Positions 4,664 through 54,010 of a stretch of 64,000 nucleotides of DNA are shown one piece after another (position 1 is the first letter of the stretch; each line of letters opens with the position of its first letter). The stretch lies in the NCBI RefSeq assembly GCF_023055435.1, contig NW_025963890.1, positions 34,534,001-34,598,000 of the forward strand, read 5' to 3'. The stretch comes from Haliotis rufescens (lineage: Eukaryota). Both the position numbers and the translations under genes were made by a program. Under the pieces are notes generated by a model that ran no database searches, was not told the origin of the DNA, and saw only the letters and a list, made by a program, of their open reading frames with translations.

Positions 4664-6975
4664 ATGGATTTGACTTGGATATTGTTAATCTATTCATCGC
4701 TTGATGTCGGAAGTTGGGGTACGTATACATATTACTATATATATATATATATTCATTTGTCTAAATACACATTGTTCCTTTTAAATGCTATGCATTCATA
4801 TCAATAAATGACTTTCTCATAACCTGTTTACTTGGTACCAATTCACTTCCTGCATATGAAACAACATCATTCTTTGCTTAAATCGTTTTTGTTTCAGGAG
4901 GCAATGATGTTTGCAAACATATTCACGAGTGCTGTCTTTATAAAGACAAACAGTGTAAAAGGGAAACGTCGTCAGATATTTGCAAAGTCGAATGCAGTAA
5001 ATATCATGATTGTTCCACAAATGACGTTCGGCTTTCGAAAGAAGGGATTGCATGTAATGCAAATTGTACAAATGACATTGGGGCATGTGATGTCGAATGC
5101 ATCCCTGGACATTACGGTACAAAATGTCATTTTGGATGTAATGGTAAATGTAGAATGCATAAGTGTTACAGAGATAATGGCTCGTGCGTTGACGGTTGTG
5201 AGGCAGGCTACTTTGGAGATAAGTGTGAGTCGGCATGTAACAGTAATTGCAAGGACAAAAAATGTGACAGGAGTAACGGAAGCTGCATCAATGGGTGTTC
5301 TCCTGGCTATTACGGTGAAGATTGTCTTAGTAAATGTGAAACATCATGCCGTTATCACGTTTGTGATGGGAAGACTGGCAACTGTCTTTTTGGATGCACT
5401 GAGGGGTTCTATGGGCTTCTGTGCCAAAAGACTTGCTCTGACGATTGCTTTCTGTGCCATCCTGAAATTGGGGAATGCATCATTGGTAGGTACATATTTG
5501 CAATAACTTTTGAAGTAAGTGCGAATTCAGAGCTTATCAGAGGGATTCGCGTATTGTGATACATACTTAAGTAACATAACCATATTATGTGGATAACAGA
5601 TTAAGAAAGGTTCTATATACCTTTGTGGATTCAGACAATAGCTCCTGGTAACTCTCTTGAATTGTTTCAGATCATATTCCTGAGCTCGAGGGTACTCCTT
5701 GCACCACGAAGATACTCGTTGTCTTTTGGGGGTCAGCTGGAGTGTTCATCCTCCTTGCTGGAGCGGCAGTGTTGATGTACAGGTAATTCACATTATTGTT
5801 TAATGTTTATGTATATTCAAACGCCAGTCTACATGTTGCCGTACATACGTAAGATAAACATACATGATGCCATTGGTCCAGATAATCAGCTATTGTTTTA
5901 AAACTGTTGATAACAGTAATGTTCTATTTTTCAAAAATATTTTTATCTTCTTTCATTTTCAATAACATGTCAAATATTAGCCCTGCTAACAATAAAATAT
6001 CAACATTTTAATCCACTTAGTCAGATCACCTTTTGACTGTTTATGACCCATCAGTGTAGTGATGAGTTATAACTTGTTTCCTAGTCATGGCTTAGGATAA
6101 TTCCTTTAGATCAACCATGATCAGCACCTTAGTCTTATTTTAGTTAATTACCTAAGTTAATAAATCTAACAGTAAAGTTTGCAATCAATACAATACAAAT
6201 GGGCTGATAACCTGACGCGTATACATTACTTTTGAAACTACACGTTGTCCGTCTGTATTGGTACAGTTAGGATAAAACAGCAAACAAAAAACGAATAATA
6301 TATTTCGTATTTATTCATCACAGGAGCCAAACTTGTAGTTACACTCACAAGAAAAAGAAGAGAGGATTAGACACGCTGTTCATAGATACTAGAGCTCCAA
6401 TGGGCTTACCCAACGTGCCCAGTCAGGACACCAGATCAAGCCACTATGAGGAAATCATGTGTGGTGACACAGATCGTCACTTTCAGCATATTAGTAAAAG
6501 TACGGGTAGTATAAACCTGAGAACCTTAATCAACACCATGAAACATCCAAACCAATGCAACACCGCTAAACGTAAAAGAAACAGGGCAAACGTCGGGAGA
6601 AACGCAATGTCACTTGCGTCATCGGTGCACACAATAGACAATTTTCCAACGTGTTGGCTAGGATCGGAGACTGATTTTGATGAAATGTCGGAACATCCTG
6701 ATAAGAAGGAAGCACCTCTGGTAAGATCCCTTCAAGCTTCCCAGAAGGAAGCCGTGCGTTTTTCAGATGCCCCAAAGGATGAGGATGAAGCAGAAGATAT
6801 GGATACATCCGTGAAGGAAAGAGAGGGAGAAACTAAGTCACAGGCTGACGATGTGCCAAGGGAAGAAGCTGGCAAGAGATCCTACATCTCCGCTGTTTTT
6901 AATGAAACGGATGAAGATACAATGATCGATGATACATGTAAAGGAATATATCCGGGATTGAAAAAGGAAGACTAA
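4664..6975 (+). CDS. G1: multiple EGF-like domain type I membrane receptor (MEGF10/SCARF-like), about 468 aa
   Basis: Exons 4664-4718 (signal MDLTWILLIYSSLDVGSWG), 4898-5485 (CxxGxxGxxC repeats), 5671-5782 (TM ILVVFWGSAGVFILLAGAAVLMY), 6324-6975 (tail with YEEI). All introns GT-AG, phases 1/1/2, 1407 nt in frame. Confidence 0.88.
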
Positions 6976-9137
6976 ACAGCCTTGTTTAGGTGTTTATTGT
7001 TTCTTTAAAAGGTTCAAAATAGTTTGTGGTAAACAGTCTGAAGCAAAGTGCATATATCTGTTGCAAGGGTGATTTCAAACTTCATATCTTACTTCCTCTT
7101 CTCGAACGAGGTTGATCAAACACGTTTGACTTTCTAGACATTAAGCCTTTTCAGCGTTTCCATTACATCTGGAACGTTCCCTCATTAAATGGTCACATAG
7201 AGTTCCACCAGGTGTTGACTGTAACATTGAAGACAGCACAGAGATTTTGCATATGTGGTCGCCCTTCTGTTTCCTGGACATTGTTGGTCGTACAATGTTT
7301 GTGAACCATATATATTTTGACCTTGACTTGATGACATGATGACTTTTAGAGTAATTCGTGATGATTCCATTTTTATTTGGTGATATTATATTATTAATTC
7401 AAAGGTCTTTTTACTCTAATCATTATGAGTGCGAAAACGACGTGGGAACTTATTTGTATGATACAAATGCTTGATTTCAATTATAGCTCTGCATTTGTGT
7501 CGATATAACATGAATATGAAGTTATTTCTGTTGAACCCAGTATGCGCTACATGCTATTTTATATCAATAAAATTAGTTTATACTAGATTTCTCCCTCTTG
7601 TACTTTTTATTTGTCATTTTACATGTTGAGAGTTTTCAAATGTGTAAATTGGTACGTGTTGTTTTATATAAAACTATATATCTATTTTTTGCCGAGACTT
7701 ATTCATACACTTAACGTGAATTCGAAGTATCTCGATGGCTGCATGAATCCCCCAGTCTCACCCATCAGTTGAGGCTCAAAGGAACTATTTTATGTATTGT
7801 CACGTTCGAAATGCAATACAGGCAAAAAGATAGATGCAAAGGGAGTTAGTATAAAACGTCACAATGTGAGTATGTAGGACTCTACATAATATCCTTTCGT
7901 CACCTTGTAAACAAATTTATGTTTATTCATATAGTTTTATCTATTATTGTTATTGTACAATAATATCTGCCAAAATAAGACGTCGAAGGAGCTACTTGCA
8001 GCTATATTCATTGTTGTCAGATTAGTAGTTTTTGTAACGAGTAAACACCAAGCAATATATATTAACTTGCCTTCCAATAGCGTTGTGGGTGCTCGCATTA
8101 TCCCTTACATTACGTAATTTGTAATTTTGTACGTTTCAGTACACGTCTTCAAGTGATAAATTGATTTTTACTATCGCTAGTGCCCATGTAGTATCGAAAC
8201 GAGGAACTAAAAAGTACACAGCAAACAGTACATAAACAAGTTTGATTATATTTATGAAACCATGTCACTAACGAAACAGTTAAATTGTTGGTATGGAATA
8301 AACACACTCTTCAATGTCAAATCAAAATTGATCTCAAAGAACTCGGTGATTCGACTGATTCCGAATCAGCACAACCTTATTACATCATGTTTGTTTCCTG
8401 TATTAATTACTCATGCTGTTTACTTGTGAAACATCAACCAAATACCCTTGATCAGTTTATGACTAAGATTCGGTTTATGTTTCCCGTTGATAAGTCTCTG
8501 ATGTCTGTGCAAATATGACATACCAGATTCTCATACCCGCCCGACCTTCCAGATACCCCACGCCACAACACATTATATTTGGAGTCTTCGTCATGTTCAG
8601 TTCTTTCACCAACGAAACTAGGAGCTTGTTTACGACCTTTTAAATATTCATAATAGCAGTACAGATTTATCGAGTATTATGTGCTGTCAAAACCTACGTC
8701 AAGTGAACGAACATATAAGATAACCGACTTGGTCAATGAAACTGTGACATTTGCGATAAAACATCACTAGATATGATGCTTTACCATTTCAATTGTATTT
8801 CCTGTTCAGGTAAGTGTTGTTTCATATGCAGAATTTACGATTACCGTGTGTATTAATCTCTTAAAATAAGCCGGAAATTGCAATCAGCTGTGCACACATT
8901 TTCTCCCATTACCACCGGTGATTCAGTAAAAAAACATTTACAGTCAGTTAACTCCTTTGCTTCGGGAAGATGCACTTTAATATATTGCCTGATGTCTTTA
9001 CGCATGGAACAGTTTGACGAGTCCCCGTTAGAAGCTTCCCGCGGACTTGGATGACGAAAACATATTATAGTCTAACTACGACAAATATGACTTATTACAA
9101 GTCAAAGTATGGCATCTGAGATATTTTCCATTCTCTG

Positions 9138-9420
9138 TTGTTTGTGCACCCCTCTATACAGCTGTATGTTTGTGCACCCCCTCTATACAGCTGTATGTTT
9201 GTGCACCCCCTCTATACAGCTGTATGTTTGTGCACCCCCTCTATACAGCTGTATGTTTGTGCACCCCCTCTATACAGCTGTATGTTTGTGCACCCCCAAT
9301 ACAGCTGTATGTCAGTGCACCCCCAATACAGCTGTATGTTTGTGCACCCCTCTATACAGCTGTATGTGTGTACACCCCTCTATACAGCTGTTTGTTTGTG
9401 AACCCCCTCTATACAGCTGT
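9138..9420. repeat. Minisatellite, about 29-bp unit, truncated by assembly gap
   Basis: Unit GTTTGTGCACCCCCTCTATACAGCTGTAT, about 10 copies, running into Ns at 9421. Confidence 0.95.
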
Positions 9421-11430: not shown

Positions 11431-13233
11431 ATAAATACGTTTGATTAAAAGTGACTTACATTAAATTCATATGATGATAAACAAAATATTTATTTGGACT
11501 AAATGGTGTAAGATTCTCTCGGAACAAGCTAATAAGCCCTTTCCCTGTAAGATCTATAATAAGGAAGTTTGAACTGCCCATAAATAATTCATTTGAAATA
11601 TTTGATAGGAAAATAACCCCTATTTTAAAGTATGGAAGCGAAATATAGGGCTTTGTTTACAGAGAAAGTATGGAATGTGTCTGTAGGAAATTCTGTAAAT
11701 TCCAATTAGGTGTGGGGTATAGTTTTTCGAATGCGGCCACCTATGGGGAGTGTGGGAGACTTTCGTTAAGTTCTAATTATTATTGTTAAACTGCAAATGT
11801 TACATTTAAGTCAAAATATCAAATCTTGAAAAAGAACAACAGAATATACGGAAGTAGTGTCCATGCAACGTTGCATACAAAGTTTCAGAGCGAAGGACGT
11901 CTTTTGAGAGAGTTTTACAGCATATTCGAGGGTATCAAAGGGAGAAGGTAAGTACATAAAAAATTATATATTATCGAAAAATAACATGTGTTGAGCCCCG
12001 GCACTACTAACTTCGAACCTTTTGAAAAATGTCATGATCAGGTGTCATTATTGTTTTGAGAAGCAGTGTGAAGTTTGAGCTTCATTGTTCCGGTGGTTTC
12101 TGAAGAGAGAATGTTCACAAAACCTGGGATGCTTTTTTAGAGAAATAACAGCATGGTCAAGGTGCAAAGGTTAAATATAGGTCAAACTTAAAGTTCGAAA
12201 AAGAAACCCAGATTAGTATGTTGAGTAACACCACCAACTAAACACACAACGGATATCATTACTTTTGAAAAACATGGTAAGGGTTATCTATATAGCTGAC
12301 GAGGCGAATTTCGAATGTTTTGTAAGCACATTACACAAAACACATGTAGCGACAAGTTGTTTGTCGTTTGCAGTTTTAGGGGAAAGACCCTTCTTTAAAG
12401 CTGCAGAGTCCGTATCATTTCAGAATTTCACAATCTCCACAATCTAGTATATTTAAATGTTATTGACTCTCACGTCAGCACAATCTATTTGGACGTTTAT
12501 TATCATATAAACAAAATGCAGGTAGAGACATATCGCGTGACTGCATTTTACTGGAGCATGTAAAATGGAAATGATATTAACATTTGTCACGAACACGGCC
12601 CATGCCTTTTTATATTTTTCAATATTAATTCAAAAGAATTCACTTATTCTTTGAAAGGTCCTCTTCATTCATTATACGACTTGTCATACATTATGTAGAA
12701 AACAATGGTCGTTATCTTGATCTATTAAAGAAATAGCACCATTGTTCATGAAAATCAATCAAACGATCATAAAATGCACGCATAATATTATTGCCACGTA
12801 ACTGAAATTCAGGCTGTAAAGTTTACGGATCAAGAAACAGATTACAAATGGAAATACAAACACATCTTGTTATTATATTGCAAAATAATCCAGTATTTTC
12901 CGTAAAATGATAACACATGAACTGTTTCCTTTTGAGAACATTCAGTTTCCTTTAACATTTGATTTAATAGCCAATGTTTTTTTTATAGCAGGCACAGTTG
13001 GAGAAGAAGGAATGTGTCCTATGTACATTACGAATATGAGTTGTGTGGTATATGTATCAGTGAATAGATAGAAGATAAGAAGCATAACAAGTTTAAACAT
13101 TGAATGTGTTTATGGATGTAAGATTATTCAACATATTCAGGCAATGTGTCGCCATAGTGGTAGTGTCTGTTTTTGTGTTCGTGATAGTGTTCCCATTAAT
13201 TGGGTTACTATCCTCCTTTTCAACAGGGGAAAC

Positions 13234-15656
13234 ATGGACCTAATTTGGATTATGTACTTCTGTCTAACTCTTGTTCTTGCTCAAGATGACAAAGTGACCG
13301 GAAGTAAAGGTACGTAAGCGTTTAACCCATGTCACTATATTTCAAATACACATATAAATATTTATGTCTGCATGATTTCCTTTCAATGCTTTGACGAAGA
13401 CATACACCAGTCACATTTAAATATTGAGTAACAGATGAGTAACAGTTTACTTGTTCTCTGTCAAGTATCAATATATCACGCGAACCTATTTTACTCTTGT
13501 TTATTTCAGGAACTGTGAATGACAACCTGATAGCGCCAGCACAAGACACCACTACTGTCCGAGGTAGGTCAGTAGGTTTCCGGGATCAACATTAGGGATG
13601 TCATTTGAACAGAATTGGTTAGCAATATGACTAGATGTAACGTCACACGCTCTGATTGATATTATGGTACCAAATGTCAATGTAGTGATAAATGTTAAGA
13701 CACTAAATGCAACAGAGATACTGGCACTTGTCTTGGTGGTTGCCAGACAGGTTACTTTGGAATAACTTGTGGTAGAAAGAGAGCAACCATTTGATTTTAG
13801 TATGAGATCAGCATTATTTCTAAATGTTTCGGAGATCAATCTTTTTTTCCAACATAAACAGGTGCTCAAATTATTTAAATATATATATATTTTTTAAAAA
13901 CACTTTAATATAGTCACATCTACAGGATGGTTAGCTCTCTCTCTCTTTTTTTTGGCATCCGTTGAGCTCGGGAGTCCATGAATCCGCGCCCGTGTTGAAG
14001 TAAGGTCTTTGGCACTGGCAGAGCAGCCCCTGTGGCGGTTGTACAGGCTTACTCCGGAATGGCAGTCGCTGAGAGATGGCGTCCGTTGGCGCTGTACTCT
14101 TCGTTGGCGCTGGTCTTCCGCTCAGCCGGTTTTTCCTAGAAGACTTGCTGCAGCTTGGCCTCGCCTCTCTTGAGTCCTCTGCTGATCATGACGTCCTGCA
14201 CGTCCTGCCTCAATCGCCTGCAGACGGCGGCGCGTTCCTCCCATCGCTCCACGTCCATGTCCGCTTGCAGACGTCTTTGAAGGGGGGGGGGGGGGATAGG
14301 GACGTCCATGTGCCTTTTAGACAGAGGCGAACTTATTCGGGGTCCTCCCGTCCTCCATGCGGCGGACGTGGCCGAGCCAGCGAAGACGGCGTTGTTAGAG
14401 CAACGGAGGTTCAGGGGAGCAGGGAGAGAACTTCAATGTTTGTGACACTACTGCTGATTTTGACGATGCGCCAGGCTGCGCTAGTGAAAGGCGTTGAAAA
14501 TATTTTCTTGTCTGGAGAAGAGGGTCCAAAACTCGCTGTCGTACAGCAATTTGCTGACGTCACACATTCTCTTCGTCAATTTTGTGAGGACGGAAGACGC
14601 TTTGCCGACCCGCCTGTTGATCTGAGCATCCACGGGCAGATTGTGTGCGACGGGGGAGCCGAGGTAGGTGGACTTATATTCAGTTGTGCCTTGACATAAA
14701 TGTTCTGGCTTGGTATATTTCAGAACCCGAACCCGAACGTTCTTGCACAGCAGAGATACTCGCTGCTTTTTGGGGGTCAGTTGGAATGTTCATTCTACTT
14801 GCAGGAGCTGCAGTGATCATGTATAGGTAAGTCAGGCCAGTGCACATTAACACTGGATGAAGAGATATACTTAAATGATGTAATTCAATTTTAATTTCAA
14901 TCCCATGACTACCTGCAGTAACGCTCCTTTGCATATCAATTATGATGAAAGTAAATGTATGAATATATGACTGTACTTGCATTTGTCAAAGCATGTGTGT
15001 GTAGTTTTGTATGTGTGCGCGCGCATACGCTTTGCTTATCTTCCAATTATGATAAACATTGTTGTTCCCACAGGAATCGAATGCTTACTTCCATTGGGAA
15101 AAGGAGAAAAAAGGGATTAGATACACTGTTCGACGACACTTCCTCTCCTATGCGACCTCCGTCCAGGGCCCATCGAGAATCCATGTTAAGTGGCTATGCT
15201 GACGTAATGAGCATCGACACTGCCTGTCACTATCGTCGTGTCAGCAGAAGTCTTGGCAGTATCAACTTTAGAACGTTCAGAGCGAGCACCGTGAAGGGTT
15301 CTACTCTGTACAATACTAAAAGAAGTAAAATGAGCACAAACGCCGCAGTGGACATTACCATATCAGTGGAGCCCCCACAATTTAAAATATACGATCAGCA
15401 ATCGTATTGGTTGGGCACGGAGACGGACTTTGAAGACGTCTACAAAAGTTCCCCAAAGAAAAGGGCAACTCTTCGCAGATACTATGCAGGTCTTCAGGAG
15501 GACACCCGTACGGATAAAGATGAAGAGGATACAGCATCGGAGGAACCACGGGGAGCCACTGGGACGCAGACTCACTGTGCATCAAGGGATGTACGAAGCA
15601 AATTTCTTTACATCTCCCCTGTGTTTAACGAAAAAAATGCAGAATCAAAGACATGA
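13234..15656 (+). CDS. G2: paralog of G1 with degenerate EGF exon; predicted ectodomain-less membrane protein, about 271 aa (or a pseudogene)
   Basis: Exons 13234-13309 (signal MDLIWIMYFCLTLVLA), 13510-13563 (short exon ending at GAG|GTAGGT), 14724-14826 (TM ILAAFWGSVGMFILLAGAAVIMY), 15074-15656 (stop-free tail aligning to G1: GLDTLF, GSINxRT, WLGxETDF, YISxVFNE). 816 nt in frame. Confidence 0.65.
13564..13790 (+). pseudogene. Decayed remainder of the G2 EGF exon
   Basis: Reads CNVTRSD*YYGTKCQCSDKC*DTKCNRDTGTCLGGCQTGYFGITC with TGA at 13657 and TAA at 13696, in a different frame from the exon start, whose own frame hits TAG at 13593. Confidence 0.85.
13934..14690 (-). mobile_element. RTE-clade LINE, 5'-truncated and decayed, in G2 intron
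   Basis: Minus-strand translation gives RTE C-terminal motifs TYLGS, NAFH, RWLGHVRRMEDGR, FKDVCKR, DCHS; 3' end followed by an A/(GA)n tail; GC-richer than flanks. Confidence 0.8.
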
Positions 15657-16361
15657 AAACACTTTCATTGATAATATTCGGTAAATCAGGACAAAGTGTC
15701 GGCAGTCACTGAGTATGAATATCTTCATCTGTAAGTGTCAGAAAATCTTAACTATCAACTTATTGTGCATATACCTGGTGACTGGAGACATACGTTACTG
15801 TCTAAATGACGAATTGTACTCTTTACGTCATCAAAGACAAAGACAACATGTGCGATATGTTTCGATATCAAGTATTGTATGGACTGTAATAATCTATTAG
15901 TGATCGTGGCACGCATGTGGTGTGATGTTAATGATTAGCGTAGTGCGTCGCCGTTCTAATATCACAGGCTAGAGAGCAATGACTCTTTTGCTGTCTCTTT
16001 ATTGTCAGTATAGCACCCCCTCGTTAGTCTCCAAGTTATCTCGGAGAAAGTCAACCTTAACCTCTAGGTTTTTCATGCATGTTTTCTCATGCGAACTACC
16101 AACTGTATCGAGCTATATTCTTAAAATGAGTATTTAGGATTATTGTATTAAATAAACACTCCGTGTAAATACATATTCAGCTTACATAAAATGTTCCATT
16201 ATTAATTATGTCATAAAGAACATATTTGTAAATAATTTATTCTATGGATTATACGATGAGCTAACATGTACAAGCCTCAGTGTATACATTAAAGTTGAGT
16301 AATTTATAGATATTGCACTTCTGTTGCGACGTGCATGTACATGTAATTACATGTATGTACG

Positions 16362-20218: not shown

Positions 20219-22278
20219 ATGAGGGGTCAATGTTGCATGCACGTACTTGGAGTGGTAAGTTAGGTATTTGTTTCTAATCTATACGATGGATATACATGTA
20301 AGTTTGTTGTCTGTACGTGTTTTTTTCTAATGCTGCACTCGGCAATATTCCAGTTTTGTGACGGCGGTCTAAATAGTCGAATCTGGATCAGACAATCCAG
20401 TAACCATGAATCTATGCAATTAGCTAGTAAACGATGATATTCATCAACCCTGTCACCAAGTCACCCGATCTTTACTGAGGCAACAATAAAGTGGAGGTCG
20501 GATGACAATAGCGCATGTTTGTTGTTTTTTCACTCTCGCAATGTTTTACTCTGCCATTCATCGTGCTCTTACGTTTTTACTTCTTTTGATGAAACAAATG
20601 ATTATATACCTGATGTAATGGGTTTTGCAGAGTGTAATGGTGGGATTGGGATCTCTGTTGATACAAGCAAGTGAGTATTACATAATTATCATTGTCACAT
20701 ATTGTATTCTTTATGATCAGGAATCACTGTAAAGGTTTCATTAACACTCCTATGTGTATCACTGCTATATGATATTCCAAGAGTTCATTAAAGCAAAAAC
20801 AATATCGAATATTAATGTCCTGAAAACTATGTATGTTTCATAAATAAGTAACTGCTGTCATAACAGATGAGTCCTGCAACGAGAGATGTTCCTATTGTGT
20901 GGGGACGAAGTGTCGGGAATGCCTCTACGGCTGGTATGGACGCGATTGTAATGAAAAATGTAGTGAGTTTTGCTGGCATGGTGGATGTGAGAGGATAACA
21001 GGACGGTGTCACCAGTGTGTTCCTGGGAGACACTCTGGCTACTGCAACCAACTCTGCTCACACCACTGCAGGGAGAATAGCAAGGGTCAGGTCAACTGTG
21101 ACTTATCAACTGGAAACTGTTTGGAGGACTGCGTAGAGGGAAGATGGGGTCCACGATGCCAGCACAGATGTCATGCAAACTGTAAAGATGAACTTTGCTA
21201 CAAAGAAGATGGAGGATGTCTGAAAGGCTGCCTTGATGGACTGTATGGCGTCAAGTGTAAAAAGCAATGTTCAGAAGGTTGTTTGAGCAGCACGTGTGAA
21301 TGGTTGACTGGTAAATGTAACCAAGGATGTAAGGTTGGTTTCCTTGGCTCCACCTGTTCGTACCCCATGACTAGACACTGTCTGAACCAGGCTTACTATG
21401 CAGAGCATCATACCATGGCGTGTACCGATGGATGTGAAGATGGTTACACTTCAGCAAGTTGCAACGAAACATGTAATACCAGATGTCTTAAATGTCATCA
21501 GTATTCACAGACATGTCAGTTATGTATGTCTGGATTTTATGGAGACAAATGCCAACTTGAATGTCATACGAACTGTCAGGAATTGAACTGTGACATGTCT
21601 GGTCGATGTGACAGAGGGTGTAAACGAGGTTTCCGCGGTGGATATTGTAATGAAACCTGCCCATACAACTGTTTGGCATGTAGTCAACATTACAAGACTT
21701 GTACTGAGTGTAAAGTAGGGTATACTGGTGCTACGTGTACAGAGGTGGAGTCATACAACAAGTTAGACGTCACAGGTAATGATGCTACATATCTATTCTA
21801 AAATACATTGTTAACAAACCTTGGTGAAAACCTTAACTGAAAGAAGCGGAATTAGCGTCGATGTGCATACATAGTGTTAATACATTTGACGTGATACCGT
21901 TGGCTACAACAATAAAACAGATATACGGATTAACGAATCTTTGTCTCAGAGTATATCCTCTGTATACATTTAGATTTTCCCTGTACAAGCATTTCTGGAA
22001 ATTCGGGGTCCGGCATAATGAGGTTTACTGTGTAATGCTCTTTCTTAACAGTTCAGTATTACCATGTAACCCATTAAATGTTCAAGAGTAGTTACATGTT
22101 CTTGATAGTTCTCAGACTATATGAAAATCGCATGTAGCTATGCTTAACATCTATAACGTTTGTTTCAGTCAAAGTGTCTTGCCTCGTTTCAGATACGGTG
22201 TCACACAGCAAGGCCTGCATCTGGTTAACACTAACAATGTGGACTGTAACGTATCAGTTGTCCTCGTGCATAACGTGA
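20219..22278 (+). CDS. G3: multiple EGF-like domain protein, putatively GPI-anchored or secreted, about 356 aa
   Basis: Exons 20219-20254 and 20631-20670 (split signal MRGQCCMHVLGV/SVMVGLGSLLIQA), 20867-21775 (EGF-like repeats), 22193-22278 (DTVSHSKACIWLTLTMWTVTYQLSSCIT*). 1071 nt in frame; an alternative in-frame acceptor ends at 22168. Confidence 0.82.
20315..20470 (-). mobile_element. SINE family C, partial, in G3 intron
   Basis: GCACTCGGCAATATTCCAG ... GACGGCGGTCT ... CAGACAATCCAG matches the reverse complement of the family C 3' half. Confidence 0.65.
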
Positions 22279-24601: not shown

Positions 24602-26357
24602 ATGACACTGCAACCCTGGCTTGTTGTCGCAGTGGTAAGATTGCTTATTGCTTTTCCATGAATGTTTCATATCGACAATGACACTCCTGTTAACCAACTC
24701 TGTTTACCTCATGCGTGTATCGTTCTGATATATAATTCATATGCAAATGTTGAAAAACTCAAATGTGTATTATGTTTGTAAAATAATATATATTCATACA
24801 TTTTTCATTTTAGTGTTTCAGTTCAGTGTTCGGATTTTCTTTGGTACATGGAAGTAAGTATATCTTCATTGTTATGTTTAAATAGCTCCAACAAGTTATA
24901 GCTGTATATCATAGTAACAACACGTTTTCGCTTTCGTAATAATATACTTGTATTAAATATACAATATATTTATTGAAATACAGTTAAATATCCGGAATTT
25001 CTGTACTCAAATACTGGTAAATAGTATACACACATGGTATCATTACAGGTGAGGTTTGCCACGAGAGATGTTCCTATTGTGTGGGGACGAAGTGTCGGGA
25101 ATGCCTCTACGGCTGGTATGGACGCGATTGTAATGAAAAATGTAGTGAGTTTTGCTGGCATGGTGGATGTGAGAGGATAACAGGACGGTGTCACCAGTGT
25201 GTTCCTGGGAGACACTCTGGCTACTGCAACCAACTCTGCTCACACCACTGCAGGGAGAATAGCAAGGGTCAGGTCAACTGTGACTTATCAACTGGAAACT
25301 GTTTGGAGGAATGTGCTGAAGGAAGATGGGGTCCACGATGCCAGCACAGATGTCATGCAAATTGCAAAGAAGGTCTTTGCTACAAAGAAGATGGAGGATG
25401 TTTGAAAGGCTGCCTTGATGGATGGCACGGCGTTAAATGTAATAACCGCTGTTCAGTCCGATGTCTCAACATCACGTGTCACTGGTTAACTGGTAAATGC
25501 ACACATGGATGTATCAAAGGTTTTACTGGCTCAAAATGTTCCCATCCACACACAAGACACTGTGTGGACCCTGAGGCATATCACACAGACGATCAGTCCG
25601 TGGTGTGCGAGGGAGGATGTAAGCCTGGGTGGACCTCTGCCCTCTGTGAAAACAAATGTGAGGAGAGGTGTGAGACATGTCACCAGTTTGACAAAACCTG
25701 TCAGTTGTGTCAGCCCGGATTTTATGGAGTAGCATGTCAACTTGAATGTGGCATGAACTGTAACCAAACACACTGTGACATGTCGGGTCAGTGTGACAAA
25801 GGGTGTATGAGCGGTTTCCGTGGTGTGTATTGCAATGAAACCTGTCCATTTAACTGTTTAAGGTGCAGTCAATTTCAAAACATATGTACAGTCTGTAAAC
25901 CAGAATACAAGGGCGACCAGTGTCATGAGACCACCACTCCTAAAGTTGGCCACGCTACAGGTACCTCTCGTATTGATTATTCTTCATAACTGAAATGTTT
26001 CTTCCTATCAACAGCCAAGTGGCATGCCTCACACATTTCATTTATCATCATTAACGTCATCACACCGATAAGACCAGTACCGTTATGTAAACTGTCGATG
26101 TCATATGACAACAGTGATATCAGATCACAGCCACAGTCACAATGTCATATCGGAAAAAGTTATCCATAAGATATGTAAGAATATATACAGTTCATGATTC
26201 TTGATTATTCTTGACATTTAAAACTGTTTACCCAAATATTGACACTTATACTAACTGTTGGCGTGGGTTTTCTTTTTCAGACGAGGGCGTACACAAACAG
26301 GCGAGCACCCTGACAGTAGTATTTCTTTATTCCGTAGCTCGTATTATTACAACCTGA
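24602..26357 (+). CDS. G4: multiple EGF-like domain protein, putatively GPI-anchored or secreted, about 353 aa; closest paralog of G3
   Basis: Exons 24602-24634 and 24814-24853 (signal MTLQPWLVVAV/CFSSVFGFSLVHG), 25049-25960 (EGF-like repeats), 26281-26357 (DEGVHKQASTLTVVFLYSVARIITT*). 1062 nt in frame. Confidence 0.85.
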
Positions 26358-29232: not shown

Positions 29233-31708
29233 ATGTTTACCAATGCACTTACTTGTTTAACACTCTTCATCAGTGGATTTATCAATGGTAAGTAACCGGG
29301 CTGCAACAGTTTTAAGTTTTTGAAGTTTATAGATGATCAGAAATGAAAGTTAAACTGAAAGTAACTCATATCACAATCACAAACCGCAAATTGTATATTG
29401 AGTATTTACTTGTATGCATATTCATTCCCGGGAACAATCAAAATATACAAATGTGAGCTACTTAGTAACTGAAAGCGATATTGTCTTGAATTTGTATGAT
29501 TGTTTCATTGCAGAATCATCTGGTAAAGATGAAATCTGCGATGGAACTGGCTGTACAAGGGGCTGCAAAGATGGCTTCTACGGGCCCCAGTGTAGATATC
29601 GCTGCACTGGCAATTGTCTGAACAACCGCTGCAATACATCTGCATTTGGTTCAGCATCTTGCACAGATGGATGTAAAGACGGCTTCTGGGGTAACAGGTG
29701 TATCAGTAGATGTCCCCACTTTTGTAAGAGATGCCATAATGACACTTCGTGCAGTGAATGTGATGGCTTCCATTACGGACCAAACTGTACTACAATCTGC
29801 AGAGGAACATGTTCAGTGTCAGGTTGTAACAGTGACGGGACATGCAGGAAGGACAATCACACGATGTATCCATGTGGCTCCAACTGCCTGCTGTGTGACG
29901 CCTCGACCGGCAGCTGCAAGAGCTGTAAAATAACTTACGCAGGAGTGAAATGTGAGGTCTATTGTGGAAACTGTAACGGAACTTGTTCAGTTGATGGCTG
30001 TATGGAAGGATGCTCGTCGGGATATCGGGGACCGTATTGTGAAGATACATGTAGCAAAAGGTGTTCCGAAAATGTCTGTGATCAAGAGACCGGGAGTTGT
30101 TCGAAAGGGTGTCGTGATGGATATACAGGGGACATCTGTTCCAAAATATGCCCACATCACTGTCTACGGAACATCTGTCATCAACATTCAGGACAATGCA
30201 AACACGGCTGTCAGAATGGATATTTCGGACCTTTGTGTAAATCTGTTTGTGAAAACTGTTTTGATGACGCGTGCAACCGCAGCACCGGTCGGTGTGAGTA
30301 CGGATGTGTGGACGGCAACTATGGGTTGGACTGTAACCATGTGTGCAGTGAGCTGTGCAAATCTGGAAGATGCCAGAGGGAAGATGGTGCGTGTTTAAAA
30401 GGAACGAGCGGAAGTAAGTTGCTTAATGTCACATCTATGCAATCTTCCCTTTCTTCATCTTAGTGCATACATGTTGTCTAACTCCCTATTAATTATCATT
30501 ATACAATAACAGTAACTGTTGTATTATAAGCAAATACAAAAGATGTAATATGGAATTATCCAGGTTCAAGTTTGACATATAGCCTTAACAACGAAATTGA
30601 ATAATTTTTCACAATACGCTTCTTTCGTTTGCAGATTCTACCCCAAAACCACCCTTAGATGCAACAGTCAGTGCCAATGTGTATTTGATCCTTGCGTCAG
30701 TGGGAGTATTCTTGCTCTGTGTTGTTGCAGCAGGGATACTGATGATCAGGTACATATGACAATGGTCCCGTGAAGATCTGGATTAGAATAGGGCTTCAGC
30801 AACTCTCGTAAGAGGCGATTAACGGGATCGGGTGGTCAGTCTCGCTGACTTGGTCAATGCATGTCATCGTATCCCAACTGCGTAGATCGATGCTCATGAT
30901 GGCAATCACTGGATTGTCTGGTCCAGACTCGATTATTTACAGACCACTGTCATATAGCTGGAGCAATGCTGAGCGCGGCGTTAAGCAACAAACAAACAAA
31001 ACAAAACATAAGACAATGAAGACAAAGAGACTATGGCCCTTACGTAGAATGTCTCTTGATGATGAATTCCACTTTCCTATTACCGAAAACATACAGTGAT
31101 TTGCGAAATAATATTAACCATGGACATATATGAAACTTATTCACAATATAAAGTTAATTACAACAGTGGCTCTCTCTCTCTCTATTGTAACAATTAATTG
31201 TTGTTTCAAATCAATGGTGACCTTCACTAAACACTGTTATTCCTATTGCCACAGGTTCTGCCGGTCTCCCTGTCTTAAGAGGCTGAACAGGAACAATCCT
31301 CCACCGTCAGGTCGCTCACTTCCAGACCCGCCCCCACTACAGACCAGCAAGAACATGTACAGTGTTATATACGAAGACCAAATGGACCCGAGTGCCCAAT
31401 CTCTTAGAAGCAACACCTTAACTCCTCCTTCGCGAAACCCTGGCCTCGATAGGTCAAACAGTTTGCCCCTGTCCAAAGTCGATCCAGAAGAGGGTGTGTT
31501 CTCAACCTCAGGTGAGGTGCTCCAAATGCGATCTATTTGTGATACAACGCCATCAGAAGAGCCTGAACTACACAGCCTGTGTGCGTCTCCTGACCCTGAC
31601 GGTTCAACTTACGAGAGTCTCTCAAGTAGTGCACCAGGACACAAACAGACAACTGTTCCTCGTCCTTACATCACTCCAGTCACTGATGATCAACCCGAAC
31701 TATCATAA
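29233..31708 (+). CDS. G5: multiple EGF-like domain type I membrane receptor, about 507 aa
   Basis: Exons 29233-29287 (signal MFTNALTCLTLFISGFIN), 29514-30413 (EGF-like repeats), 30635-30749 (TM VYLILASVGVFLLCVVAAGILMI), 31255-31708 (Pro/Ser-rich tail with YSVI, YESL, YITPV). 1524 nt in frame. Confidence 0.9.
30767..31005 (+). mobile_element. SINE family C in G5 intron 3
   Basis: Starts CCCGTGAAGAT, (AAAC)n tail; TSD ACATA(T/A)GACAATG. Confidence 0.88.
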
Positions 31709-35969: not shown

Positions 35970-38262
35970 ATGTCCTGGTGTTGCGCTGTGTTGGTGTTGG
36001 CTGCCGTTGTTGGTAAGTAGTTTCATGTCATTGTATACATTGATAAAATATATATCAGTCGATGTTTATCAGAACACATTATTGTCCAAGACGAATCACA
36101 AATTCAAAGTCATGTCTGATTTAATTCTTGTATGTGGACTGACTGTGTCTACTCGTTCATTTCAAATGTTATCAGGCCCTGTTTCTCCACTGTTAAGGAG
36201 TGAGTGAGTATGGTTTTACGCCGCTTTTAGCAATATTCCAGCAATATCACGGCGGGGGACACCAGAAATGGGCTTCACACATTGTACCCATGTCGGGAAT
36301 CGAACCCGGGTCTTCGGCGTGACGAGCGAACGCTTTAACCACTAGGCTACCCGACCGCCCCCCACTGTTAAGGAAGAAACGTACATTGTATGTAGCAATA
36401 GTTTACACGTCGTTTTAAGATTAAGATGATTCAACAATTTTATGAGATAAGATAGCTCAATATGCACGTGAACACATTTAACTGGTATCAGACATTTATG
36501 GAATACGTCTGTTTATGTTTTTAAAAGGAATTATCTCATTTTCAGAGACGTCTCAATACAGCAGTCACTGCTTAAGATCAACCGAACCCAAGCCGTGTAT
36601 GTACTGTGTGAGGGGGTGGTTTGGCGAGGACTGTAGCCGAAATTGTCCATCATGTGACAATTCTGGTTGTGACAGAAATACAGGCATATGCGTCAACTGT
36701 GCAGATGGGTTATACTCAGAAAGCTGTTCCTTGAAATGCCCAGATAACTGCAAGACGAGAAATGACAGCCAGGTTCGCTGTGAAAGGATTACAGGACATT
36801 GTATGGAAGACTGTAAATCTGGATGGTGGGGAGACAAGTGCAACAAGCGTTGTAGTGACAACTGTCTCCGTTCAGACTGTTTCTTCTATGATGGTTCGTG
36901 CGCTTGGGGCTGCAAGGATGGTTGGACGGGAAGCATGTGCACTGACAACTGTCCAGAAGAATGCTCCTTGAACAAATGCTCCCAACGTGGAAAATGTACT
37001 ATTGGGTGTAAGAAAGGTTTCTACGGAGAAACATGTGACAATAAATGCAGTGACACGTGTAGGAATAACAACTGCTACTTTGACAACATCATCCATTACA
37101 CGGTATGCCGAGATGGATGTAGCGATGGGTGGAAGGCAGCTTACTGTAATGAATCTTGTTCTACCGGTTGTAGAAAATGTAATCAACATAATGGTGAATG
37201 TTCCCTATGCATGGTTGGTCGCTGGGGTGTACAGTGTGAGAAACGCTGTTCAACCTGCAGCAACTCACTCTGTGATATCACTGGGGAGTGCACAGAAGGC
37301 TGTCAGAGTGGTTATCATGGACACATGTGTGACCGAGTATGTCAACCCGACTGCCTTGAGTGTCGCAAAAACGATAGCGAGTGCCTCGTATACAAACCTG
37401 GGAAGACGGATGAAAGTATTGATACTATTCTGGAAGATCTGGGTGAAAACCCCAATGATAGAGGTATGCAGGTACATCCACAGAATAGCGATACATTGAT
37501 CCAATTAACTGAGATATCCCCAATCCAGGACAAGTAAAACATTCCAGATAACATTCTATTAGTTTTGTTTGAATTTTCTTCTGTCAAAGATACATTGTGT
37601 CTTTATTTGTGAGTTGAAAAATAAAGAACAAATATAGACCTATTATGATATAAATACTCGACAACAAGTATCATTCCCCTCCATCTTACATACATCTATG
37701 CCACATAAAATTTATTTATTTTTATGGTCTCTGGAGCATGCATAATGACAGAACGTGTATAGGCATTTTAACCTGTATATACTTATGTATCTTTCAGGCG
37801 ACGCTCACGTCCTGAGGATAGCAATACCGGTCTCCGTCGCAGTGGCATTTGTTGTCTTCATAATTGTATTCATTGCCATCTGCAGGTAATGCTATAAAGA
37901 ATTATATCCTTTGTGAACTTTCACCATTCTTGCCAAGGGAAAAGTGTATAGTGTCTCGTACTGACGATCTTTAATGTTTTAATCTGTAGGCAGTGCCGAA
38001 AGCAGGGTAGATGATGTGTATTTAAGTAAAATCAATTTTTTAGAGTAATGTGTGGTTTCGGGGATAATTCATGAATCTATTAAATGTGGGTGTACATGAT
38101 GTCTTATGTGCTACAATATGTTGCAGGTGGAGAAAACTACATAAACGTGGGCATGTTGAGGAACAGCGTGTTACAGAGACACTCTCGGACTCTGAGACAG
38201 AGTCGTTTGTTACCCCCGAGACACAAGTCAAACGAAAGGCAACATCCCTGGAGATGTTGTAG
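35970..38262 (+). CDS. G6: multiple EGF-like domain type I membrane protein with short Tyr-free tail, about 394 aa
   Basis: Exons 35970-36012 (signal MSWCCAVLVLAAVV), 36546-37463 (EGF-like repeats), 37798-37885 (TM IAIPVSVAVAFVVFIIVFIAIC), 38127-38262 (RWRKLHKR...SLEML*). 1185 nt in frame. Confidence 0.88.
36200..36361 (-). mobile_element. tRNA-derived SINE family B in G6 intron 1
   Basis: Intact A and B boxes; perfect 13-bp TSD CCACTGTTAAGGA at 36187-36199 and 36362-36374, suggesting a young insertion. Confidence 0.93.
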
Positions 38263-49749: not shown

Positions 49750-51388
49750 TGCCGTTGGTAATAGCAGTTTACAGGGATGTTCAACATCAACGCTTTTCTC
49801 AACATATGTTCTGTCATAACCTTTTATGGAAAAAAGCATAAGCATAAGCGTACTTCTAAAACTTTCACAGTAGTCGATGTCCAAACATTATGTTTGTACT
49901 TCAGACAAACGTGTTCAAATCCGCACAACATTCATCTTCGTCCATCTTGTTGTTTCCAAGGTGTGCAGCTATACAGATGTATGTTGGTTCTTCTGAATCA
50001 AAGGGTTATTGTGGTCTGTTTACTGGATGAAACCAATCATCTTTGCGTCGCTTCTCCGGGATATCTGCTTTAGGGTGATGCTTTGTCGTGCTCCATCTTC
50101 CCCCAAGGCCTCATTTTAAACAGATGAAATTAACTGTGGCACTGAGACCAGGTCAGTTTCACGTATCTTCAGTGGATTCATTATTAAGCGTTCCATTTCT
50201 ATCCACTACGTCCATGGTCGAAGCATTCTGATCACTAGCAAGTTGATTTGTCTCCAATCTAAAAATACAAATACGTTGTCGTAATATTTAAGCACTCTGA
50301 TTTATTAACGTAATAGTGAAATAGTGATGTTGATATTTACATTGTATGCACAAACCTTTAATTGTCAGTTTATTAAAAGTAAAATTAATAACGTTAAATG
50401 TTTAATGTGTGGGTGAGTGAGTCAATCAGTCAGTCATATTTAATCAACACATACATACATTGAAATATCTTTGTACATGTTCCTTTCAAATATTTGACAT
50501 TTTATGCACAAACCTTTAATTGTCAATGTATGAAAAGTAAAATTATAACGTTAAATTTTATTTGACGTCATATTTCATCAGCACATATTCATGGACATAT
50601 CTACATACATTCATAGTTCATTTTAAAGTTCGGATTTCTTACTTTCATCTCCTCCCTTTACGACATTACATGCCACGCCCTGCTCCAGACACATCGTGTG
50701 GCGTTCCTCCCCACATCCGCAAGCACCATCCGCCTGGAGACATCTCTCACAGTCAGTCCCACAATATGTCTGGTGCAGTCAGTCCCCAAGTAGCCTTGCT
50801 TGCATCTGAAACATTCCCCAGTCTCTTGAGAACACGCTTCACAGTTACTAGGACACTTCAGCCTACAGTCGAGAGACATCCAGCCATCCACAAAGCCCTG
50901 TCTGCATACTGTAGACTTCATTCTGTGGTCACAGAAACAGTCCTGATCTGCATATCAGTGATGTCAGTGAAGACCGTGTTTACAACCTCGGGTACACCTA
51001 TGGCTCCCGTACTGTTCACATGTGTCACCGTGACATCCCCCTGGACAACTGGTGTCACAACCGTCACCAGTCCAACCGTTCCTGCAGCCTCTAGCACACG
51101 ACCCATCCCAGCCGTAGCTGGGGTTGTCTTCACATCCATCACTGCACTTGTTTTCACAGTCAGTCAGCCGACAAATTTTCAGACAGTTTCCTGTCTCCCG
51201 GTCACAGTGGGCTTGTCATCATTACTGAATCTGCAGTTGGGGGGACATGTATCTGTACAGTTGGTGGCTGTCGCCGATATCACAAACGCCGAAACATTTG
51301 TAGTTGTCATTGTCTCAATATCAGCCACTCTTGCAGTCAGTGCAACGAACGTCGACTGATGGCGAGAGACAGTTAGAATCAAAGAATA
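49750..51388 (-). pseudogene. G8: chimeric pseudogene (G7-like EGF exon plus G9-like cytoplasmic exon)
   Basis: 51388-50643 aligns to the G7 EGF exon with stops (KSG*Y*D), deletions and frameshifts; 50258 to about 49750 aligns to the G9 tail exon (59430-58830) with stops; no TM exon seen between them. Confidence 0.85.
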
Positions 51389-51492
51389 CTGAAACATATA
51401 TACTATTGTCCTTTTTTTCTCATACAAATGATACATTGATGTCTTTTGGGTTTATTGAACATGAGTCAATGTGCCAAACAAATATGCCAGAA

Positions 51493-52439: not shown

Positions 52440-54010
52440 TTTGCATTATATATGCAGAATGGTAATGCTGATATATTGAGAGTTAGTTGAACACCGTTTT
52501 AAGCATTGGCTTGACATATTTAACACACACTCTTGCAAAGTCATTTGCATCTTTATCACATAGTCTGTAATCTGTTCTGCAAGACAACATGCATTCAGTG
52601 AGCTTTGCTGATTCCATACCATGCAGGTAGCAGCTAAAGTCGACATCACCGATATTGATCAACTCCATCCAGAGCTTATCCCGAATGTCACACGTACATT
52701 CACACTCAACAACTGCATTTGTCACTGGATCACGATACACAAGACCACATTTGTGGCACAGTCCTGTATCACACATGTCCTTTGCGGTGGCACACGTCCT
52801 TATCACAAAGTTAGGGTTCAGTCTCAGAGTTGGAGTCGTCTAAGGAGATTTGCCAGGCTGGATGGACATCATATAGTCGATGGATTCGACTAAACATCTG
52901 GAGTTCTGGATCAGCAGCAAGTCTCTGCCTCCAGGCAGAGACATGGTGAGATTTTAGAGCTTTACTCATTAATCGTTTCCATCTCTGTTTCCCTATGAAG
53001 ATACCATTCCGCAGGAACGACAGCAGAGGATCCATGAGATTGTATTTGGATAACAATCTGATGACGTCTGGAACAAATCCTGATGATGAGGTTGTCAGGT
53101 GGTGAATGTAACACATCAGTCTGGTCATGAACAGCGGGTGAGGCAGGAACTTCGGGTTCATGTTGATGATGCGCTCCAGGAAATACAACTTTCTTTGATC
53201 TATATGGTATTCAATGGGTAGAACACCAAGAAGACTCAAGCAGACATCAGTACGGGTCAGTCGCGGCAAGTCTTGGATAGATTTTATGACATATCTGAAC
53301 GATCTCTCCAGCATCAGCAACCCTTCCTTTGATAGATTTGACCACAGTTCTGATCCATACAGAGTCCTTGGGAGGTACATATTATTTACCACAATCAAGT
53401 TGGTTATAGGATTCAGGAACCTAGGATGAAACCTCGTGAAATCAGCGTTCTTACTCCTAACCTCAGGTTGACTGAAGCTTGAGTAACATGTTCAAGGGAT
53501 GACATGTTGCCAGAGAGTACCAAACCAACATGTCTGATGGTGTTCGTCCATGGAATGGGTTCACTGTACAGCTTCAGTTCAGATCTGTGTTGAGTCCCCT
53601 TGCGGCAAGGGAATGATACAATCTCACTTTTGGAAGACGAAAATATGTACCGTCAGTCACAGCTGTAGTCCTCAGCTGTTTTCAACATTAATTTCAATGC
53701 TGACACTCTTGATGAAACAAGGGCTTGCGTCGGAGAACAGGTATTCAAATCCATAACTACAGCACCAAGTGTCGACTTCGATAGTTTCTGGCGTCAGTGT
53801 ACAAGAAGTACAACTTCCCCGACAACACAACCTTGTCCTATTCCCTCTCTCATGGATACGGGTCTAGACCACATTGAGTCCACACACACACGGCTAACCA
53901 TCTCTGTGTACATGTTGTCAAGCACTAGCCATAGAGACCCCTTGATTCCGAACTCGAATATCTTGTACTTAAGACCACTATACCACACCATGTCAAATGC
54001 CTTACACGTA
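52440..54010 (-). mobile_element. Non-LTR retrotransposon (LINE) ORF2 3' half, decayed
   Basis: KAFDMVW...GIKG...GIGQGCV (RT core, ORF 53794-54156), LYGSELW...LG..PIE..IDQRKL (52811-53398), Cys-rich C-terminus (52483-52806), all broken by frameshifts. Confidence 0.88.

Follow-up and report, generated by a model that had tools for sequence, protein, structure and literature searches.

An abalone EGF-receptor duplicate that has lost its ectodomain, a candidate transmembrane adaptor

The window analysed here is a stretch of 64,000 nucleotides of Haliotis rufescens DNA, and its gene G2 is best explained, in our view and with moderate confidence, as a spliced duplicate of the neighbouring receptor gene G1 whose EGF exon has been cut to a 54-nt stalk, and whose product is likely a ligand-less, disulfide-linked transmembrane adaptor docking SH2 proteins. 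The gene is already on record in RefSeq as 'uncharacterized' (LOC124111908), a title that carries no functional label; our search of the open-access literature (PMC and bioRxiv) listed no paper on G2 or on a molluscan ectodomain-less adaptor.

Structure of the G2 locus

Isoform X2 of LOC124111908 (271 aa) is identical to our stalk model of G2, and isoform X1 has an N-terminus longer by 30 aa; the RefSeq model may have been derived from the same assembly as the window. The features of G1 and G2, in window positions, are as follows.

4664-6975, plus strand: G1, the intact sister receptor, 468 aa, RefSeq 'PEAR1-like', with exons at 4664-4718, 4898-5485, 5671-5782 and 6324-6975
13144-13233, plus strand: in-frame upstream extension in isoform X1 (30 aa more), otherwise 5' UTR; unspliced contigs run through it
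13234-13309, plus strand: G2 exon with the predicted signal peptide (about 16 aa) and the start of the stalk; donor AAG/GTACGT; joint 13309>13510 in X13, X18 and X19
13510-13563, plus strand: G2 stalk exon, 54 nt, Cys-free, the 5' end of the former EGF exon
13564-13569, plus strand: internal phase-1 splice donor GTAGGT, overlapping the first stop of the old EGF frame; stalk-to-TM joint in X13
13564-13790, plus strand: decayed remnant of the EGF exon, part of the intron today and cut short at its 3' end, with three stops, a frame change and 9 of 13 Cys left; common to organism B DNA
13960-14690, minus strand: old interspersed repeat, retrotransposon-like (RTE label putative); also in organism B DNA
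14724-14826, plus strand: G2 TM exon, with Cys51, Glu54 and a hydrophobic core at about 55-77
15074-15656, plus strand: G2 tail exon, with a basic stop-transfer, 9 Tyr (7 kept in three orthologs) and a C-terminal YISPVF block
15657-16280, plus strand: G2 3' UTR, as far as the cover by contigs of X13 and X20 reaches

The original prediction held that the signal, TM and 583-nt tail exons are stop-free with canonical splice sites, and this was confirmed: the G2 exons have AG/GT ends (13234-13309, 13510-13563, 14724-14826 and 15074-15656, the last of 583 nt), and the frame is open in both models, the stalk form of 271 aa and the skip form, which leaves out the EGF exon, of 253 aa. Its proposal of a phase-1 donor 54 nt into the dead exon, giving 271 aa, also proved right: GAG/GTAGGT at 13564 has that phase and is the top-scoring GT within 13512-13960 (5.4, against 3.1 for the next) by a crude matrix, and the RefSeq protein is identical.

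Far upstream of the G2 ATG, over 12883-13233, contigs run unspliced and hold many upstream ATGs. The organism B indels in the X1 extension (13170 and 13211) are both of 3 nt, so that the frame is kept. Downstream, in the 3' UTR, run X18 jumps over 94 nt (15949-16044) with non-splice ends, which is probably a deletion allele.

Transcripts

Spliced G2 transcripts of the stalk form are supported, because the joints 13309>13510 and 14826>15074 occur in X13 with GT..AG ends and one X13 contig of 1359 nt joins stalk, TM and tail. The stalk-TM joint of that contig is 3 nt shorter than predicted, in our reading because of an in-frame allele; neither of the DNA runs X12 and X6 covers the stalk donor. 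The joint 13309>13510 also occurs in X18 and X19 (organism B), TM-tail loose ends are present in X19 and X20 (organism C), and exon joints are found in contigs from three organisms; no G2 joints were seen in X16. The analysis covered 8 of 24 listed runs, of which five were taken as RNA by a guessed label, and all runs consist of contigs, whose depth over G2 is low. X19 reads 16 nt beyond the stalk donor and some X13 contigs come from introns; RNA or DNA that is not spliced must therefore be present.

The spliced reads that the original prediction had called for were thus found in part, as the stalk-TM join in one X13 contig, 3 nt short. The skip form, which it also offered, is in frame at 253 aa, but its joint 13309>14724 appears in none of the five RNA-like runs, whose contigs cannot show absence. 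A loose end of X12 at 13513, considered as an insertion allele, was rejected: it belongs to a different locus with a similar acceptor.

Origin of G2 and age of the ectodomain loss

The G2 tail and TM sequences are common only to G1 and G2 in the genome (2 matches each), and by this evidence the adjacent PEAR1/MEGF10-like receptor G1 is the only paralog detected. Exon phases are the same in both genes, nucleotide identity is 77% over the TM exon and 58% over the tail, and the tail proteins are 35% identical. By sequence likeness, G2 descends from a MEGF10/PEAR1/SCARF-like receptor, the family name being that of G1 in RefSeq and G1 having no Pfam hit. The Cys-rich EGF-like ectodomain is absent from the G2 product and is left solely as the intronic remnant, which matches the EGF exon of G1 (tblastn E 1.6e-6; blastn 70% over 139 nt). 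The at least three stops and the frame change ascribed to this exon were all found, with TAG at 13565, TGA at 13657 and TAA at 13696 along the G1-homologous frames and the frame change near 13618; 4 of the 13 aligned Cys are lost (two of the 13 adjoin gaps). We also tried the 3' half of the stalk as old EGF sequence in a shifted frame and rejected the idea, as the match was marginal (83 of 2000 shuffles as good) and, for the stalk by itself, was equalled by 1473 of 2000 shuffles.

The next intron had been said to carry an RTE fragment. An old interspersed repeat is there, with 30 other matches in the genome, and it may be a retrotransposon of the RTE clade, which some degraded RT-like words would fit. 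A Pfam scan of two pieces of the insert gave no hit.

Searching the tail against 1.84 billion representatives returned 3 proteins, namely a G2 ortholog, the H. asinina ortholog and G1. Orthologs of G2 are found in H. cracherodii (a partial model), in P0002 and in H. asinina (tail identity 62%), and those of G1 in H. cracherodii and H. rubra (69%); sequence matches to G2 were only Haliotis-labelled or abalone-like, with no Pfam family. Longer fused relatives of the tail numbered 0 of 353 candidates in a weak search that missed G1 too. In the tree, G1 orthologs and G2 orthologs form separate clades (100/100), and the duplication is therefore older than the split of East and West Pacific abalone, dated at 36.4 Ma (PMC11704959). 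The branch from G2 to H. asinina measures 0.55, against 0.40 from G1 to H. rubra.

The loss of the EGF part is at least as old as the split of organisms A and B: organism B DNA (X14) extends across the G2 locus and has both the dead exon and the repeat. The H. asinina G2 model has no EGF repeats, about 22 Cys-free residues before the TM exon and no signal peptide; its pre-TM segment starts with GAMND, compared with GTVND in G2 and GAVDD in H. rubra G1. This segment fits a short stalk common with G2, and on the strength of the model an old, single loss of the EGF part shared with H. asinina is likely; the loss is possibly older than the East/West Pacific split at 36 Ma. The H. cracherodii G2 model begins within intron sequence directly ahead of the TM exon and is therefore of little use for its ectodomain. 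The expectation that relatives would share the dead exon with an intact tail is accordingly borne out in organism B DNA for the exon and in the orthologs for the tail, with H. asinina represented by a model only.

Predicted protein and its closest counterparts

The protein predicted for G2 consists of a leader, a stalk of 38 aa bearing one Cys, a single TM (one hydropathy peak) and a tail of about 190 aa, in which Pfam found no family and no catalytic domain. Cys occurs at 10, 51, 129 and 246 only, and Cys51 is present in 3/3 G2 sequences covering its position. The tail has 9 Tyr, of which the 7 kept in three orthologs are not clearly above the background identity (62%); five of the Tyr kept in G2 are non-Tyr in G1, and the set would fit a docking scaffold. 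An ITIM-like site reads SGYADV in G2 and SHYEEI in all G1; in G2 it is not strict, being NGYADV in H. cracherodii and YADG in P0002. Pattern scans (P0001, P0005 and P0003) found no ITAM. YxxM is absent from the tail, as is a distal YxN of the Grb2 type, the sole YRN lying at the TM edge and being absent from H. asinina. Also absent from G2 are a juxtamembrane cytoplasmic Cys, an N-glycosylation sequon, an acidic residue in the hydrophobic core 55-77 and the D/ExxxT/S motif. AlphaFold2 with a 3-row alignment, too shallow to prove disorder, gave a mean pLDDT of 38 with helices only at signal and TM. In the ESM Atlas the best match was gpUL132 (0.92), the others were small single-pass proteins, and the family was in common for 1/10; we read these matches as likeness of architecture only.

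Transmembrane adaptor proteins (TRAPs), a structural-functional class, are described by a short ectodomain, one TM and a long multi-Tyr tail (PMC4861716). G2 has the short ectodomain, the single TM and the long multi-Tyr tail without a catalytic domain, although its predicted mature stalk of 38 aa is longer than the classic 'few amino acids' of that description. Among such proteins, SIT (PMC2193021) begins with a leader and an 18-aa ectodomain that holds a single Cys; one TM follows, and its tyrosine-motif tail includes an ITIM. The likeness of G2 to SIT and TRIM (SIT1, TRAT1), both disulfide-linked transmembrane adaptors, lies in predicted anatomy: a leader and a stalk of 38 aa before one TM, a single ecto-Cys, and a tail that bears 9 Tyr and the ITIM-like site, while dimerisation and SH2 binding are putative for G2. 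Unlike them, G2 shows no sequence homology to either, lacks an N-glycosylation sequon, has an ITIM-like site that varies among orthologs and comes from a mollusc EGF receptor. LAT, NTAL, PAG and LIME, palmitoylated adaptors of rafts, share with G2 the short ectodomain, one TM and long multi-Tyr tail, but G2 is without their juxtamembrane cytoplasmic Cys and distal YxN and has a predicted cleavable leader. DAP12, DAP10, FcR-gamma and CD3-zeta resemble it in the short stalk with a Cys and, as in zeta (PMC13107469), an acid about one turn after that Cys, whereas G2 has no ITAM, YxxM or D/ExxxT/S, bears its Glu at the TM edge and ends in a tail of about 190 aa. We infer that G2 is of the SIT/TRIM type by its working and not a member by sequence, the defining feature of its own EGF family having been lost.

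In the mechanism that we favour, the internal donor trims the EGF exon of the G1 duplicate to the 54-nt stalk, and a putative disulfide dimer would form via Cys51. The trigger would most likely be the co-clustering of G2 with a ligand-binding EGF receptor, G1 being the first candidate; the tail Tyr, once phosphorylated, would dock SH2 proteins, and the likely output would be a tuning of the partner receptor signal, much like the effect of SIT and TRIM on the TCR.

Relation to G1

Three residues after the shared Cys stands Glu in 3/3 G2 sequences versus Lys in 3/3 G1 sequences, so that Glu54 of G2, at the outer edge of its TM and followed by Ala at +4, falls in one alignment column with Lys228 of G1. 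In all three G1 ectodomains 34 Cys precede the juxtamembrane Cys, which is therefore probably unpaired. In zeta-zeta (PMC13107469) the acidic pair sits one turn below the disulfide. This parallel, and the Glu and Lys next to a Cys that probably has no pair, put G1 first among the candidate partners.

One may go further and suppose that G2 is an obligate signalling subunit of G1 in the manner of FcR-gamma or zeta, held by the juxtamembrane Cys and a Glu54-Lys228 contact, with G1 binding the ligand and G2 adding Tyr. The Glu/Lys column three residues past a conserved Cys, the probably unpaired Cys of G1, the zeta-zeta geometry (PMC13107469) and the five Tyr that are kept in G2 and non-Tyr in G1 all speak for such an arrangement. 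However, polar residues commonly occur at the outer margin of the core, where these charges lie, the entire TM exon is conserved and does not single out the Glu/Lys column, G1 already has a tyrosine tail, and G2 lacks both ITAM and D/ExxxT/S; we regard the arrangement as unlikely. A prediction of the G1-G2 TM complex, made without alignments or folded controls, scored 0.06 and carries no weight either way. We would give similarly little credence to the fuller scenario of a dedicated signalling subunit, made from a duplicated EGF receptor that shed its exon more than 36 Ma ago via a new donor, pairing with G1 through Cys-Cys and Glu-Lys contacts and convergent with FcR-gamma/zeta.

G2 might also be a decoy or dominant negative, which keeps the G1 blocks GLDTLF, GSINxR, WLG and YISxVFN and titrates the cytoplasmic partners of G1 with no signal of its own. 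The ectodomain is indeed lost, and H. asinina retains 42/48 of the columns that G1 and G2 have in common versus 74/138 of the others, a contrast inflated by construction. Against this, the G2-specific AAVDITISV and KGSTLYNT are conserved between H. rufescens and H. asinina as well, and the tails are only 35% identical; we regard a decoy as unlikely.

Constraint and decay

The relation of the coding exons to the remnant bears on whether G2 is under selection at all. The organism B remnant has 1 nt more at 13618 and is without the 13696 stop, and the A and B lineages therefore differ by lesions in the remnant; the organism B TM exon has 0/103 differences. Organism B DNA has 3 differences in the G2 exons, each of them nonsynonymous, and its exons are no more conserved than its introns (3/233 vs 22/1360, p 1). 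The differences listed for the X20 tail comprise 7 synonymous and 7 nonsynonymous ones (pN/pS 0.29, p 0.021), or 7/11 in a worst case that allows for three unlisted rows and for the four further amino-acid changes of P0002 (pN/pS 0.45, p 0.084). For the X13 tail those listed are 4 synonymous and 0 nonsynonymous, and the pooled tail variants give 9/8 to 9/12 (p 0.006 to 0.028). The tail indels seen are all in frame (18 nt in X20, P0002 and P0005). At window position 15500 the reference is without an 18-nt in-frame piece, a Tyr-bearing hexapeptide, that organism C, P0002 and H. cracherodii have; in organism B the piece shows as a loose end.

Cys loss in the remnant translates into a decay d of about 0.14 (0.04-0.36). 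When we simulated such decay, assuming 0.1 indels per substitution, a neutral 816-nt frame survived in 2.8% (stops only) or 0.025% (with indels) of 4000 runs at d 0.14, and in 37% or 5.5% at the low end of d 0.035. Where the G1 orthologs agree at a column, agreement among the G2 orthologs is more frequent too (85/127 vs 31/59, p 0.043), and conservation is mildly clustered along the tail (p 0.03-0.05). The G2 tail is nonetheless fast-evolving, and the neutral distance to H. asinina, about 0.10 by a published calibration (PMC11704959), is below the tail amino-acid distance. From these counts we infer moderate purifying selection since the death of the EGF part, with the frame and the motif blocks constrained and most residues weakly so. 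The claim of continued selection on the tail thus keeps the backing of a pN/pS of 0.29-0.45 and of in-frame indels, on few sites, at moderate strength and with a worst-case p of 0.084. As for tail-disrupting mutations in other individuals, the indels seen are in frame and the tail is intact in four sequences.

It could still be argued that G2 is a transcribed relic under relaxed selection, in which the EGF exon died recently, the donor happened to save the frame and no damage has reached the rest so far. The worst-case pN/pS of 0.45 is not significant, every exon change in organism B is nonsynonymous, P0002 has a broken ITIM-like site, the depth of the contigs is low, and the distance to H. 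asinina just given points the same way. But the A and B remnants differ by a stop and a frameshift and the coding exons by neither, the indels are in frame, splice joints occur in three organisms, and a frame seldom survives the decay estimated by Cys loss; taken together, these make the relic a rather improbable account.

Neighbouring genes

The original prediction had likened G2 to DAP12 or LAT and assigned it to the service of the tail-less paralogs G3, G4, G6 and G7. Neither label holds, because ITAM, YxxM, distal YxN and juxtamembrane cytoplasmic Cys are all lacking; the core acid and D/ExxxT/S are missing as well. The proposed service had in its favour that these four genes lie in the same cluster with the tail absent or a Tyr-free 44 aa, and that an Arg stands just before the G6 TM, but G3, G4 and G7 end without a cytoplasmic part, look GPI-anchored and so offer no charged TM, G2 has neither a mid-TM acid nor a palmitoylation Cys, and proximity is the sole link, so that we consider this adaptor role very improbable. 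The closer analogy would be SIT/TRIM, and the better candidate partner G1.

The terminal exons of G3, G4 and G7 (22193-22278, plus; 26281-26357, plus; 42954-42878, minus) encode a hydrophobic C-terminus with no cytoplasmic part, which resembles a GPI-anchor signal. G6 (37798-37885 and 38127-38262, plus) has the Arg and the 44-aa Tyr-free tail just mentioned, with FVTP where G5 has YITP. The G5 tail (31255-31708, plus; 150 aa) carries an ITIM-like STYESL and a C-terminal YITPV, an echo of YISPV/YISAV in G2/G1 in tails that have no detectable alignment. The EGF exons of G3 and G4 (20858-21714 and 25040-25899) are 80% identical overall and nearly identical over the first 270 nt, which suggests gene conversion. 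Decayed EGF exons lie at 50760-51409 and 60465-60866 (both minus), the first being 76% identical to the G7 exon with an internal stop. An open frame of 226 codons at 52814-53491 (minus), for which Pfam gave a weak DUF1413 hit only, is presumably the C-terminal part of a LINE reverse transcriptase. Two tandem minisatellite arrays, at about 1350-2750 and 9135-9420, have units of about 43 bp and 28 bp by eye.

In Biomphalaria, clusters of EGF receptors (LG5R) map to schistosome resistance; most of their tails are small and have no known signalling route, and genes without parts are filed there as potential fragments (PMC13712769). G1 and its neighbours resemble these MEGF10/PEAR1/SCARF-like gastropod clusters in the signal, the Cys-rich EGF-like exon, the TM or anchor, the tandem order and the decayed copies. 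None of the five subgroups described there (PMC13712769) is ectodomain-less with a long tail, whereas G2 is spliced and conserved.

Implications

Most descriptions of ligand-less transmembrane adaptors concern immune cells of vertebrates, where it is difficult to trace how such proteins arose. In G2 the passage from a receptor to an adaptor-shaped protein can be read in the DNA, through duplication, a new donor, the decay of an exon and the keeping of TM and tail. If its function fails, G2 would be an ordinary exon loss in a fast-evolving cluster. As it stands, G2 suggests that some of the 'fragments' of such clusters are functional, and it is a candidate signalling route for the EGF-receptor cluster in abalone. 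If the pairing of G1 with G2 is true, abalone would have built a modular immune receptor of their own, with the fossil exon still readable in the intron.
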